64,000 bases of DNA from a virus: positions 130,115 to 194,114 of IMG/VR virus record IMGVR_UViG_3300022699_000302; one strand, written 5' to 3'. Below, piece after piece: positions 31,091 to 38,941 of the stretch; position 1 is the first letter of the stretch, and every line of letters begins with the position of its first letter. The notes under the pieces were generated by a model, which saw only the letters and a list, made by a program, of their open reading frames with translations, was not told where the DNA came from and did not search any database. Position numbers and translations under genes: made by a program.

Positions 31091-31126
31091 AATAAAAGAA
31101 AAAGACAAGGGCCCCCGAAGGGGCCC
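31091..31126 (-). terminator. Intrinsic terminator closing the minus-strand island
   Basis: GGGCCCC-TTCG-GGGGCCC followed by TTGTCTTTTTCTTTT. Confidence 0.8.
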
Positions 31127-31148
31127 CTGGAAGTGGCTGAATCTTCTG

Positions 31149-31510: not shown

Positions 31511-31852
31511 CTACGCAGCAGCCTTCATGGTCGAGCCCTGGAACCCCAGGTACTCGAAGGTCTGACCCCACGAAGTCTTCTGACCTCGCAAACGGCGAAG
31601 CGATTTACGCATCGCCCAGGCATCGACACCGCACGCCAGGATCAGCGTGGCGCCACCGACGATGGATATGGGATTGCCGGTCAAGATCCCGAGGGCGATG
31701 GCGGCACCGCCCCCCAGTACTCCGGTGTAGATTGCCAATCGCCTCATTTTGGGTTCTCGGCTCGTGTTCCTCGACCCGAAGCTGGCGCCGGTGAAGAAGA
31801 TCGACCCGCTCAGCAGAGCGGACGTGACAAGCGAAAAGATTGCCATGAACAT
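31511..31852 (-). CDS. Small membrane protein (about 3 TM)
   Basis: AAGGAGG RBS; three hydrophobic segments. Confidence 0.7.
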   Translation of the reverse strand: MFMAIFSLVTSALLSGSIFFTGASFGSRNTSREPKMRRLAIYTGVLGGGAAIALGILTGNPISIVGGATLILACGVDAWAMRKSLRRLRGQKTSWGQTFEYLGFQGSTMKAAA

Positions 31853-31936: not shown

Positions 31937-31963
31937 AAAATAAAAGGACCCCGGAGGGTCCTT
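31937..31963 (-). terminator. Intrinsic terminator
   Basis: AAGGACCC-TCCG-GGGTCCTT followed by TTATTTT, directly after stop 31962. Confidence 0.75.
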
Positions 31964-32309
31964 AAATTTGATCCATCATCCACTTATAGGTTAGGGGTGT
32001 CGGGGTAAAGACAACATACGACCCTGCCCCTTCTTTGACTGAAAATAGATTAGTTTCCTCCAGGTAGCTTTTCCCTCTTTCCCTGGATACCCGGGTACGC
32101 AGTCCAGCCGCTCGAGAAAAACTGACAAACGGGATAATCATCGGGTCACCTGGTTGAAGGGTTATTTTCTTGGCCAGGATTTTCAGTTTTTGGTACAAGA
32201 ACAGCGCGCTTTTTTCGCTGGGAGGGAATCGATAGTGGACCCATTCCGCTTCGGATTCGAATTCAGACTCAAATTCGTCTTCTCCGTTAAAGGCTGTTTC
32301 GGCAGTCAT
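31962..32309 (-). CDS. Hypothetical protein, possibly winged-helix
   Basis: CAGGAG RBS; helix-turn-helix-like FSRAAGLRTRVSRERGKSYLEE followed by a beta-hairpin. Confidence 0.5.
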   Translation of the reverse strand: MTAETAFNGEDEFESEFESEAEWVHYRFPPSEKSALFLYQKLKILAKKITLQPGDPMIIPFVSFSRAAGLRTRVSRERGKSYLEETNLFSVKEGAGSYVVFTPTPLTYKWMMDQI

Positions 32310-32326: not shown

Positions 32327-32363
32327 AGAAAACGGAACAGGGGCCCCCTCGCGGAGGCCCCTG
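32327..32363 (-). terminator. GC-rich hairpin, terminator or 3' end of the ncRNA
   Basis: CAGGGGCCTCC-GCGA-GGGGGCCCCTG followed by TTCCGTTTTCT. Confidence 0.65.
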
Positions 32364-32534
32364 CTAGATGTTGGTCGAGGATAAGTACGAGCAGATTAGC
32401 TACCGGGCTTATACCTTAGACACAGATGTGGGCGGGCGAGTCATTGCCCTGATGCCCAGACACAGATAGGTTTGACCGGCTGTAAATCATCCCCTCTCGA
32501 GGACAATTTTCCATTGGTCTCGCCCAACACCAGC
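32363..32534 (-). ncRNA. Candidate structured ncRNA of about 172 nt (unassigned)
   Basis: Ends pair (GCTGGTGTTGGGCGAG with CTCGACCAACATCTAGC); 11-bp stem with GAGA tetraloop at 32484-32509; twin ATCTGTGTCT at 32418-32427 and 32458-32467. Confidence 0.65.
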
Positions 32535-33088: not shown

Positions 33089-33185
33089 CAAGTGTGGTGG
33101 AGGCCGACCGTCCCACTACGATCGACCTCCGGGGCTTCGCGTTGCCGGGGGCAGAGGCAACTACAGGCGAAGCGACCCACACTTG
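33089..33185 (-). ncRNA. Candidate three-way-junction RNA, 97 nt (unassigned)
   Basis: P1 CAAGTGTGG/CCACACTTG; P2 GCTTCGC+GTTGCC/GGCAAC+GCGAAGC; P3 13 bp with two G.U wobbles that pair only on the minus strand. Confidence 0.7.
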
Positions 33186-36115: not shown

Positions 36116-38941
36116 GTGCTGATCAAATATACACCTCCTGCATTGGATGATTTTGAGCCGCCTGCGGTCGATATCTTCGGTCGTGAATGGGGGAAGTATG
36201 CCAGTCGCAGCTATACTCCTCCTAAGATCGAGGAGTACCTTAAGACAGCTGAACCGGTAGACGGGCACCGTATCATCCTTGTTCATGGCCTGGGTTCATC
36301 CGAGGTATGGGGGGCTAACCGTAACGGAGACGCTTTTCCTGAGCACATGGTGGGTCCCGAGGGTCAAAAAGAAGCGACCCTAATCAACGGAGACGAAGAC
36401 AAGGACTGGGGGTACCACACCTTCCAGAAATACGCTTACTCTTTTCGTGACCACAAAAACCAAGATCCTAAGCTCACGATTGGTGGCAAAGTGATCGTGG
36501 CCGACTGGAACCCCGAGATGCACCGGGTCGAGATCGTTATGCCGATCTCGGAAAAGCTGGCTGCTGATGTAGTTGAGAAGATCGATAAGGGCGAGCCCGT
36601 CGAGGTTTCGATGGGTTGCTTCATCGCGGGTACGCTGATTACGATGGCCGACGGTTCCCGGAAGCCGATCGAAGATATCCAGGTTGGTGATTACGTACTG
36701 ACTCACAAAGGCCGTTCCCGCAAGGTGACCGAGCTTCATAAGCGGCCGTACGACGGCGTGTTCTTCGCGATCAGGCCTGAGGCGCACGAGCCTTTTGTAT
36801 GTACTCAGGAGCACCCTCTTCTTGTCGTAGACCGTGATGACGTCAAGAAAGGTAAATCGGGAGGGCCTCGATGGGTCACCAAGGAAGAGGCAGATCGAAT
36901 TGAGCCCAAGTGGATTCACGCCGAGTGCTTCAATCCCGATCAGCATTATCTACTTGAGCCGGTCTTGCAGGACGTTGTGACACCTGAGTACGCCACTCGT
37001 GAGTTTGCCCGTCTGCTTGGATATTATGTTGCCGAAGGGCATGTTCTTCGAAACAAGAGCAAAGACATTTGCGGCGTAGAGTTCACCGTCAATACGTCGG
37101 ATATTTTCTTGACCGAGATTGGTGAGCTTGCCGAGAAGTACGGCACGAAGAACCCGCCTGTAATACGTCAACGGGATAATTGTGACGACGCCGTGTCTGT
37201 TCAGATTTTTGATGCGGAGCTGGCCGAGCGGTTGTACGCCCATGGTGGATCGTACGCCAAACAGAAAAAGCTGTCCGAATCCTTCATGCAGTGGCATCCG
37301 GACATCCAGCGTGAATTCGTTGGAGCCTGGGCAGAAGGTGACGGGCACGGTCTGGATTCTGGAGCACTCAGCATTTCCACCGGATCTGATGCCTTGGCTT
37401 GGCAGTTGATGACTGTCCTGGCCCGGATGGATATTTGTGCTTCAATCAATTGCCTTACCCACAAGGCCGGATCTGGTCTCTCGAAGAAGACCACATATGA
37501 GTGGGTAATTCACGTCGGAAAACAGTGGGCACAAGATCTTCACGATGTGTGTTTGAAAATCAAAGACTCGCCCGTTCTTCTGGCGAAGAATAACCGCCTG
37601 CACACAGGTAAGTTCATCATCACTCCTGTGCGGGAAATGGAAGCCAGTCGTAACGCAGTCGATGTTTACAACTTCGAGGTGGAAGAAGATGAATCCTATG
37701 TAGCCGCCGGGGTTGCGGTTCACAACTGCAAGGTCGCTTATGATGTCTGCACCAAGTGCGGCAACAAAGCCAAAAACCGAGGCTATTATTGCAAGCATGC
37801 CCGGTATGAGATGGGCAAGCGCGACCCCGACGGACGCAAGACAGCAGTGCTCAACCCGCGTCCGAAGTTCTTTGACATTTCGATCGTGAAGCGCGGGGCT
37901 GATCGCGGAGCCAAGATTCTACTGAAAGTGGCCTCGAGCCAGATCCAAGTCCCGGATTGGCCGGATCGTAAATCAATCACAGCTGGCCTCAAGCTGAGTG
38001 ATATCGAGAAAGAAGTGCCCGGCGCCATCAAAGGCATCTCTCCGAGTACTTCAATGCAGAACCTCGAGAAGTCCCTTCAGCGCCGTATGGTTCAAGCCGA
38101 TATGGCTACGGCTGAGCCCCTGCCTCCCAAGGTCGCTTCTCTCATGAAAACGCGTCCTGACGAGGCATACTCAGCCCTTACCTCAGCGGGCATTGTATTG
38201 ATGCCGGGTGAGACTCCTGACGCTAAATCTCTGAAGCTCGGTTCGTATCGCCCCGATATTTGGGCTGGTATTGATCTCGAAGAGCTGATGAAAAAGAGGT
38301 CGATGTACGACCCGTTCTTCCTGCCTCGTGTCTTCACCAAGATGGCTCAGGCCAAGCACGGGATAATTGATCTCTCTGAAGAAAAGTTGGCTGCATCCGA
38401 TGCAACCAATTCAACGTATCGTACCTATCTCAAAATGCTGGGTGATATGTTCCGCAACGGGGATAAGTTGGCGGCCCTCTTCAAAACAGCCAATGAAGAT
38501 GAGCGAGTAGTCTATCAAGTCCGTAAGGGTGTCGATGAGTGGGCGAAGTTTGCCTACTACTGGGACTCCACGGAACGAAAAGGTTACTCGATTGACGATA
38601 TCGCTAATTTTCTCGGCCTTGATCAAGAAAAGACAGCAGCTCTACCTTCAGCCAAGCAGGTAGGTGAAGCTGCTCAGTGGGGCTGGGAAGGAGCAAAAGG
38701 TTTGGGTCGCGGTCTTACGGAGGCTTTAGGTATGGGAGCAACTCCTGCCTATCCCTTCTCCGCAGGGGTTGCGGCTCTTGGCGCCCCGATGCTGATGAGT
38801 CAATTCTATGCCGATAAGATGATGCGTGGTGAGGATCCTGGTGTTGTAGGACGCACTGTCGCTAAGCATCCATTGGCTACCTCAGCAGCAGGTCTTTTGG
38901 GGTCGATGAAACTTCATTCAGCTATGAATAGGTGGCGCTAA
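36116..38941 (+). CDS. Prohead (maturation) serine protease with intein and C-terminal extension
   Basis: NRNGDAF, FRDH (His), VSMG (Ser), CTKCG..CKH, FFDISIV..GAD..AKI. Confidence 0.8.
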   Translation: MLIKYTPPALDDFEPPAVDIFGREWGKYASRSYTPPKIEEYLKTAEPVDGHRIILVHGLGSSEVWGANRNGDAFPEHMVGPEGQKEATLINGDEDKDWGYHTFQKYAYSFRDHKNQDPKLTIGGKVIVADWNPEMHRVEIVMPISEKLAADVVEKIDKGEPVEVSMGCFIAGTLITMADGSRKPIEDIQVGDYVLTHKGRSRKVTELHKRPYDGVFFAIRPEAHEPFVCTQEHPLLVVDRDDVKKGKSGGPRWVTKEEADRIEPKWIHAECFNPDQHYLLEPVLQDVVTPEYATREFARLLGYYVAEGHVLRNKSKDICGVEFTVNTSDIFLTEIGELAEKYGTKNPPVIRQRDNCDDAVSVQIFDAELAERLYAHGGSYAKQKKLSESFMQWHPDIQREFVGAWAEGDGHGLDSGALSISTGSDALAWQLMTVLARMDICASINCLTHKAGSGLSKKTTYEWVIHVGKQWAQDLHDVCLKIKDSPVLLAKNNRLHTGKFIITPVREMEASRNAVDVYNFEVEEDESYVAAGVAVHNCKVAYDVCTKCGNKAKNRGYYCKHARYEMGKRDPDGRKTAVLNPRPKFFDISIVKRGADRGAKILLKVASSQIQVPDWPDRKSITAGLKLSDIEKEVPGAIKGISPSTSMQNLEKSLQRRMVQADMATAEPLPPKVASLMKTRPDEAYSALTSAGIVLMPGETPDAKSLKLGSYRPDIWAGIDLEELMKKRSMYDPFFLPRVFTKMAQAKHGIIDLSEEKLAASDATNSTYRTYLKMLGDMFRNGDKLAALFKTANEDERVVYQVRKGVDEWAKFAYYWDSTERKGYSIDDIANFLGLDQEKTAALPSAKQVGEAAQWGWEGAKGLGRGLTEALGMGATPAYPFSAGVAALGAPMLMSQFYADKMMRGEDPGVVGRTVAKHPLATSAAGLLGSMKLHSAMNRWR
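36617..37726 (+). mobile_element. Intein with LAGLIDADG homing endonuclease (370 aa)
   Basis: N-terminus CFIAGTLITMADG; C-terminus VYNFEVEEDESYVAAGVAVHN followed by +1 Cys; LLGYYVAEG and FVGAWAEGDG endonuclease blocks. Confidence 0.95.
38387..38409. repeat. 23-bp dispersed palindrome, copy 5 (inside the protease gene)
   Basis: TTGGCTGCATC C GATGCAACCAA, read as LAASDATN. Confidence 0.9.

Follow-up and report, generated by a model that had tools for sequence, protein, structure and literature searches.

Several kinds of structured RNA known from phages and bacteria provide the context for the locus described here, and gene-linked structured phage RNAs are, as a kind, already known. ROOL and GOLLD are phage-borne, strongly structured RNAs, often located beside tRNA genes and recognised by covariation; they are roughly 500-800 nt long and are not known to have a dedicated protein partner. 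Some phages also carry Y RNA (YrlA) and Rsr (Ro60) modules, which have a link to tRNA-like biology and in which a small RNA with an end-closing stem and its binding protein have neighbouring genes. The 3'-UTR-derived sRNAs are structured RNAs at the 3' end of an mRNA that use the gene's own terminator and contain a conserved single strand, but these are usually 50-100 nt long, Hfq-dependent and not tied to one protein family. The nut site of the lambda N system (boxA-boxB) and the put site of HK022 combine a GNRA-type hairpin with a single strand ahead of a terminator, with a small phage gene beside them; these sites span 50-70 nt and lack a closing helix, and N itself is an unfolded arginine-rich peptide. 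Finally, ToxIN joins a protein gene and a non-coding RNA in a short cassette with a terminator, where ToxI consists of tandem 36-nt repeats upstream of an endoribonuclease toxin.

The locus analysed here shares traits with each of these systems and matches none of them. The virus record to which it belongs is complete, with a length of 194,114 bp and direct terminal repeats, and the last 64 kb of this record, which contain the locus, are referred to below as the window. On the minus strand, an open reading frame for a 172-aa helical protein (33062-32544) ends in the stop codon TAG, 9 nt past which, at position 32534, begins a 172-nt element (32534-32363, minus strand) that, judging from its fold and from a consensus with compensatory changes, forms a three-way junction closed by helix P1. 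An intrinsic terminator follows, and the next gene starts at 32309, such that the layout is that of one promoter-gene-RNA-terminator unit; a covariance-model search finds the RNA as a single copy in the 194-kb genome. The gene with its TAG stop, the gap and the start of the element are as an earlier note, made from the sequence alone, had described them, and every sequence feature listed in that note is present at the locus.

The layout, with a start just past the stop codon and a 13-bp terminator hairpin with a T-run abutting the RNA, is that of the 3'-UTR-derived sRNAs, but in this case, the RNA is a 170-nt junction that co-evolves with the coding sequence. In contrast to ROOL and GOLLD, it is about 170 nt long, always lies behind one protein gene and has no Rfam match. 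From the Y RNA modules, it differs in that there is no match to the Rfam Y-RNA families and that the adjacent gene encodes a 170-aa predicted helical bundle of the DIP1984 type rather than a TROVE/vWA ring; no tRNA-like domain was detected in it either. The likeness to nut and put is one of layout alone, and unlike ToxIN, the cassette contains a single complex RNA, without repeats, downstream of a non-nuclease fold.

The minimum-free-energy fold of the element (-60.6 kcal/mol; z -2.35, compared with -1.82 for the opposite strand) includes the pairing between its two ends that the earlier note had claimed. The 5' strand of P1, GCUGGUGUUGGGCGAG (32534-32519, minus strand), pairs with the 3' strand, CUCGACCAACAUCUAGC (32379-32363, minus strand), and the same helix appears in the RNAalifold predictions and in an alignment of five lineages. 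The linker J1/2, ACCAAUGGA (32518-32510, minus strand; consensus CCAAYGG), is kept in all five lineages and leads into P2 (32509-32484, minus strand), the 11-bp stem that had been noticed at the outset; this hairpin is capped by a GAGA (GNRA) tetraloop and keeps an invariant U.G wobble at or near its base. The long irregular central arm, P3-P5 (32480-32402, minus strand), comprises consensus helices 4-8 and holds two copies of the 10-mer ATCTGTGTCT. It is joined to P1 by the 22-nt single strand J3/1, AGCUAAUCUGCUCGUACUUAUC (32401-32380, minus strand), the best-conserved unpaired stretch of the RNA, which carries the family-wide motifs GUAGCUAA and CUCGUACUU / AUACU. The GC hairpin with a GCGA loop that had been reported directly behind the element is present as well (13 bp, 32365-32336) and, together with its T-rich tail, is scored as an intrinsic terminator (32365-32326, minus strand). 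In RNAalifold, this terminator is kept in two related lineages, L003 and L005, with compensatory changes, and an additional, tentative pairing is predicted between GGAGGUG, just past the stop codon, and CGUUUUC, past the terminator. A GAAA-receptor-like pair, CUAAG/AAUGG, seen in the window was dismissed on sequence inspection, being absent from the relatives.

Close relatives of the protein are encoded in six assembled contigs (80%, 78% and 67% identity), and the 3' flanks of these genes align with the element. For three lineages, RNAalifold predicts 63 pairs, 20 of which show compensatory double changes. The clearest compensatory case is the 11-bp P2 hairpin, which reads AAAUUGUCCUC-GAGA-GGGGAUGAUUU in the window, AAAUUAGGUUC-GAGA-GAACCUGAUUU in L003 and CAAUUAUGUUC-GGAA-GGACAUGAUUG in L005. 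A covariance model built from the window and close-relative sequences (R1) finds the RNA in two metagenomic contigs, L082 and L072, a few bases past the stop codon of the homologous gene, where the encoded proteins are 54% and 51% identical to that of the window, respectively. Both R1 and a later model with a reduced structure (R2) match the same post-gene position in L003, L005, L072 and L082, with 84.5 bits in L082 and 67 bits in L072.

The confident RNA alignment comprises five lineages only, with protein identity down to 51%. In this alignment (A10), 91.7% of the cells pair, compared with 37-41% when the partners are slid by 1-3 columns, percentages that are inflated because the alignment was fitted to the model structure; unfitted MAFFT/RNAalifold runs yield the same helices. 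Both sides have changed in 23 of the 43 pairs, and none of 500 shuffles reaches any of the observed measures. The changes on both sides affect all seven pairs of helix 1 (P1) and three of the four pairs of helix 2, and seven of the 11 pairs of P2 covary. Together with the changes among the three lineages and those in other clades described below, these results provide the covariation in homologue flanks by which the earlier note had proposed to check its RNA. Moreover, G.U pairs account for 26 of the 181 paired cells, which on the other strand would be A.C, and the GARA-capped hairpins of the family occur on the sense strand only, in agreement with the claim that the structure works on the transcribed strand.

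A conserved small ORF in the region, which the earlier note had named as evidence against its RNA, was not found. The 32-aa ORF (MENCP...) inside the window element is broken in the relatives, with MEN followed by a stop codon in L002 and no ATG in L003, and the substitutions are compensatory for RNA pairing. Coding by read-through of TAG, conceivable in a phage with an amber suppressor tRNA, was considered and rejected: the extensions run to 18, 12, 18 and 6 codons, and the changes follow the RNA pairing. Rfam 15 at the gathering threshold gives no matches in the window, and relaxing the threshold to E<=10 adds no more than noise over the terminator (BjrC68, 19 bits; cutoff, 39). In 14 related loci, the Rfam matches are to tRNA, tmRNA and RNase P RNA only, none of them over the element, and ARAGORN and the Rfam tRNA model place no tRNA or tmRNA anywhere in the window, nor over the relatives' copies of the element. 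The combination of covariation, G.U strand bias, a broken ORF and no match to any Rfam family indicates that the element is, as far as sequence comparison can tell, a real strand-specific, non-coding structured RNA that belongs to no catalogued Rfam family. The core of the original proposal, a conserved, discrete RNA on the transcribed strand that is inherited together with the upstream gene, is thus supported.

Phage genomes are rich in small ribozymes, and the compactness of this multi-helix junction, its GNRA loop and the strong conservation of its unpaired nucleotides might suggest a catalytic RNA, perhaps a self-cleaving one, that processes the transcript's 3' end upstream of the terminator or of tRNAs. 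Such activity appears very improbable: none of the Rfam ribozymes matches, even with the threshold at E 10, nor was a cleavage-site signature identified, and the variable central arm and the size are atypical of the known small ribozymes.

The most conspicuous part of the central arm is the exact 10-mer, of which there are only two copies in the 64-kb window, 40 nt apart (32467-32458 and 32427-32418), when about 0.1 would be expected by chance. The earlier note took these boxes for duplicated single-stranded binding sites presented to an oligomeric protein. The two identical 10-mers and their spacing stand, but their unpaired state does not. In the consensus, helix 6 is formed by the cores of the two boxes, UGUG with UGUG in the window (four wobble pairs) and CACA with UGUG in L003 (four Watson-Crick pairs), so the two sites are opposite strands of one helix, which look like a repeat because UGUG is self-complementary through G.U pairing. 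Furthermore, the boxes are identical in the window phage only, the corresponding sequences being TCTCACATCT and TTCTTGTGTCT in L003 and AACTGCGTCT and TTCTGTTTCT in L005, and in L072 and L082, a different insert takes the place of the whole central arm. As the two strands of a single helix, identical in one phage only, the boxes do not bear out the idea of duplicated protein-binding sites; more generally, G.U self-complementarity can by itself give rise to a striking repeat.

Much the same evidence bears on the suggestion, also made in the earlier note, of a type III toxin-antitoxin-like pair or of an anti-defence decoy with duplicated sites. An RNA and a protein encoded side by side, a terminator nearby and 10-mers that are unlikely to be identical by chance would all fit such a system. 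The sole repeat, however, is the unconserved pair of mutually pairing 10-mers, and TRF finds no tandem repeats at a score of at least 30; the RNA follows the protein gene where an antitoxin RNA would precede it, the gene past the terminator is not conserved, and the predicted fold of the protein is of the DIP1984 type, not of the ToxN/AbiQ type. Failing as it does on repeats, gene order, downstream conservation and protein fold, toxin-antitoxin or decoy logic strikes us as barely credible.

The protein partner is as uncatalogued as the RNA. While the RNA falls outside Rfam, the 172-aa protein has no match among the models of Pfam, NCBIfam and PHROG; the Pfam and NCBIfam models, PF20935 included, match neither the window protein nor 48 of its relatives, and the PF20935 model finds no match anywhere in the genome. 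Among 1.8 billion cluster representatives, a profile search recovers 592 relatives at E<=0.001, nearly all of them 166-183 aa long, where the approximately 590 family clusters are clusters at 50% identity. The AF2 model of the protein (pLDDT 92.8) has as its best fold match 3kdq, which we take to be the Corynebacterium diphtheriae protein DIP1984 (VIA-align Z 13.1, rmsd 4.5, 146 of 152 residues; next match, Z 8.7), and Foldseek aligns the two with TM scores of 0.67/0.73 and a probability of 1.00. With an identity of 13%, 3kdq is out of reach by sequence, a profile search of PDB sequences yielding coiled-coil noise only. A DIP1984/3kdq-type fold is therefore supported at the fold level, by a predicted structure, and the label DIP1984-like that the earlier note had attached to the gene is apt for the predicted fold, although not in the sense of an HMM match.

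The viral family shares its overall fold with DIP1984/DUF6847 (PF20935, 3kdq), from which it is separated as a much larger branch without an HMM match. The closest Atlas clusters are 67-100% viral, and related clusters include PF20935 (DUF6847) in 23% of their members. The family is mildly, not strongly, basic (median pI 8.5), with conserved Arg/Lys residues. Literature searches on DIP1984, DUF6847 and 3KDQ returned nothing on function, no report of RNA association or RNA-binding activity of the DIP1984 fold was found, and neither was any published link between this protein and the RNA.

The family belongs to uncultured phages, with records of 57 to ~500 kb, and among 50,697 GenBank phage records, neither blastn with the locus nor tblastn with three family members gave a match. 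Scans of viral contigs with the window protein and with the P2 pattern, and of JGI metagenomes with a strict DNA pattern, yielded nothing. Among 185,579 species genomes, the family occurs once, on a single MAG contig, which implies that it is essentially viral. For comparison across the family, 11 viral and 73 metagenomic loci were fetched through the protein, and the non-redundant loci with enough flanking DNA, 54-63 in most analyses, were used. The gene downstream of the RNA is unrelated between the window and the 67%-identity relative L005, the divergent upstream gene likewise differs, and no neighbouring protein cluster is common to more than 4 of the 63 loci; the RNA is the protein's only constant partner. 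A riboswitch or 5' leader of the downstream gene was rejected as an explanation of the element because that gene is not conserved, with a tRNA in its place in many loci.

Beyond the five lineages, the covariance models lose their reach. R1 with filters off gives no significant match in distant loci, R2 with default filters recovers the five lineages plus a weak match in L064, and clades at <=38% protein identity yield no significant match with either model; when R2 is run without filters, the 200 nt past the stop codon contain 9-10 of its 25 best weak matches, compared with about 1 expected. Thus, RNA homology beyond ~50% protein identity rests on shared features, of which there are several. 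The distance from the stop codon to the next ORF or tRNA has a median of 227 nt among the non-redundant loci, and the interval from the stop to the start of a tRNA is 176-280 nt in about 18 loci. In 37 of 52 loci, the first ~50 nt can form a long-range stem with sequence 110-290 nt downstream that outscores at least 90% of dinucleotide shuffles, and in nearly all of these 37, the closing stem ends 166-229 nt past the stop. The 140 nt behind the stop include a GARA-capped hairpin of at least 4 bp in 25 of 54 loci (shuffles, mean 1.5, maximum 5; reverse complement, 0; coding controls, 1-3), and many of these hairpins share the UUAG...CUGR base with P2 of the window. The motifs AUACU, GUAGCUAA, CUCGUACUU and GUAGCUAAAUG are 5-10-fold enriched over controls, and CCAAT is found in 25 of 58 family loci (5-7 in controls). 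Independent compensatory changes are seen within other clades, in the pairs L031/L032, L019/L058 and L013/L075; P2, for instance, reads AGGGUA-GAGA-UACCCU in L031 and AGUCUG-GAGA-CAGACU in L032. From this shared architecture, we infer that the RNAs of the clades at <=38% protein identity are probably homologous to that of the window. The RNA diverges in step with the protein, and the models find it only directly after the homologous gene, in loci that were all fetched through the protein.

The reading that we favour, while giving it somewhat less than an even chance, is that of a two-part protein-RNA cassette, either a stable ribonucleoprotein or a self-regulating unit, with presumptive contact between the two partners. 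One transcription unit would make the mRNA of the ~170-aa protein with its predicted DIP1984 fold, and the last ~175 nt of this mRNA would fold into the compact three-way-junction RNA that ends at the intrinsic terminator. The protein might then bind the RNA in cis, on its own message, or after putative 3' processing, conceivably using as the recognition surface the conserved single-stranded motifs of J3/1 and the P2 GNRA hairpin, and would thereby either enter a stable ribonucleoprotein or limit its own production through feedback. Protein-RNA binding is the leading idea because synteny extends across the whole protein family; linkage of gene and RNA in cis is, however, equally expected for a purely cis-acting 3' UTR element.

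Such an element would be a 3'-end module that acts independently of the protein, through protection of the monocistronic mRNA from 3' exonucleases or through control of termination and of read-through into following genes or tRNAs, be it attenuation or put/nut-like antitermination. Compatible with this, the RNA always ends at the terminator hairpin or its closing stem runs into a U-run, CTTTTT is enriched behind the gene (22 of 58 loci, compared with 3-6 in controls), several terminator-like hairpins stand behind genes of the same strand block of the window, and tRNA genes begin right past the element in many loci. The GNRA-type hairpin followed by a UGCUC-containing single strand also loosely resembles boxB/boxA. 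A simple stabiliser, however, has no need of a ~170-nt junction with unpaired motifs that are kept at ~30% protein identity, and the downstream genes differ, the next gene in L005, L013, L072 and L075 having its own conserved upstream motif, GGTCTAAG. The element is, furthermore, tied to one protein family and not to terminators generally, and is single-copy in the genome. On balance, we regard a protein-independent module in cis as unlikely.

A different set of observations concerns the company that the cassette keeps. About half of the loci are located among tRNA, tmRNA or RNase P RNA genes, with a tRNA or tmRNA within 1.2-1.5 kb in 30 of 63 loci, and this frequent place in islands of stable RNA genes suggests a role in stable-RNA or translation biology. 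It also invites the reading of the RNA as a stable RNA in its own right, either a 3'-UTR-derived sRNA or an RNA of tRNA islands, that would borrow no more than the gene's promoter and act in trans on host or phage targets by means of the conserved single strand. The structured body, the single-stranded J3/1 as a would-be seed, and the terminator with its U-tail amount to the architecture of a 3'-UTR-derived sRNA, and the stable RNA neighbours, including the tmRNA of L015 and the RNase P RNA of L008, would suit a tRNA-island RNA. Weighing on the other side, the models match nowhere but after this gene (among loci all fetched through the protein), the RNA and the protein diverge together, and target complementarity was not identified; an RNA that acts in trans and merely borrows the promoter accordingly seems to us quite unlikely.

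The two-part cassette can itself be taken further, to a widespread phage ribonucleoprotein of the DIP1984-fold protein and its 3' RNA that acts on tRNA, stable-RNA or translation biology. In this extended form, the proposal is rather unlikely as well, but if it were true, the particle might, for example, protect, process or mimic tRNAs against host tRNA-targeting defences, and the orphan DIP1984/DUF6847 fold would acquire its first function, as an RNA-binding module. A search of the literature on phage RNase P RNA, tmRNA and tRNA clusters found nothing relevant. Whichever reading applies, an uncatalogued RNA with strong covariation that is locked to an uncatalogued protein family constitutes a concrete two-component module whose parts, one protein and one 170-nt RNA, lend themselves directly to experiment and bear on the role of the DIP1984 fold and on the purpose of the non-tRNA content of phage tRNA islands.

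In L015, a 194-kb viral record, a tmRNA (L015:1135-1476; 127 bits, tag ANDNVERAQLMAA) ends 26 nt before the family gene. Shortly upstream of the family gene, the phage-like contig L008 encodes a full bacterial class A RNase P RNA (L008:743-1092; 211.6 bits), flanked by tRNA-Gln and tRNA-Ser. In the window phage, ARAGORN reports two adjacent tRNA-like genes only (C1:122788-122942), outside the window and ~40 kb away, one with the anticodon CUA (amber suppressor) and the other with an apparent 4-base anticodon, CUUA. The family gene ends in TAG in 32 of 63 loci, compared with 24% of the other ORFs there and 28% in the genome of the window, and amber read-through of the 172-aa gene would add 18 codons and end at a TGA inside P2.

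Among the minor features of the related loci, the motif GGTCTAAG lies ~40-45 nt before start codons in the clade of L005, L072, L013 and L075, where it is a candidate phage promoter or leader element, and precedes both the family gene and the next gene (L005:1990-2037; L013:3340-3420); in the window, it is not enriched (3 matches against 3.05 expected). The 67%-identity relatives carry past the terminator an extra insert of ~130 nt (L005:2790-2900; also in L006 and L007), with its own long hairpin and T-run (GAGGTGCCGCGG...CGCGCACCTCTTCTTTTTT), which is absent from the window.

The window itself adds a few more. The leader of the 172-aa gene (33089-33140, minus strand) contains a hairpin, GGAGGTCGATC...GGTCGGCCTCC, that is kept in L003 with a different loop. 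The small minus-strand block of genes has its own terminator-like GC hairpin behind each gene (31106-31129, 31944-31963 and 31804-31823), and the hairpin at 31129-31106 is closely similar to the terminator that follows the RNA (CAGGGGCC...GGCCCYTG plus a T-run). Elsewhere in the window, a 941-aa ORF on the plus strand (36116-38941) contains an intein with Hint and LAGLIDADG homing-endonuclease domains, as identified by Pfam.
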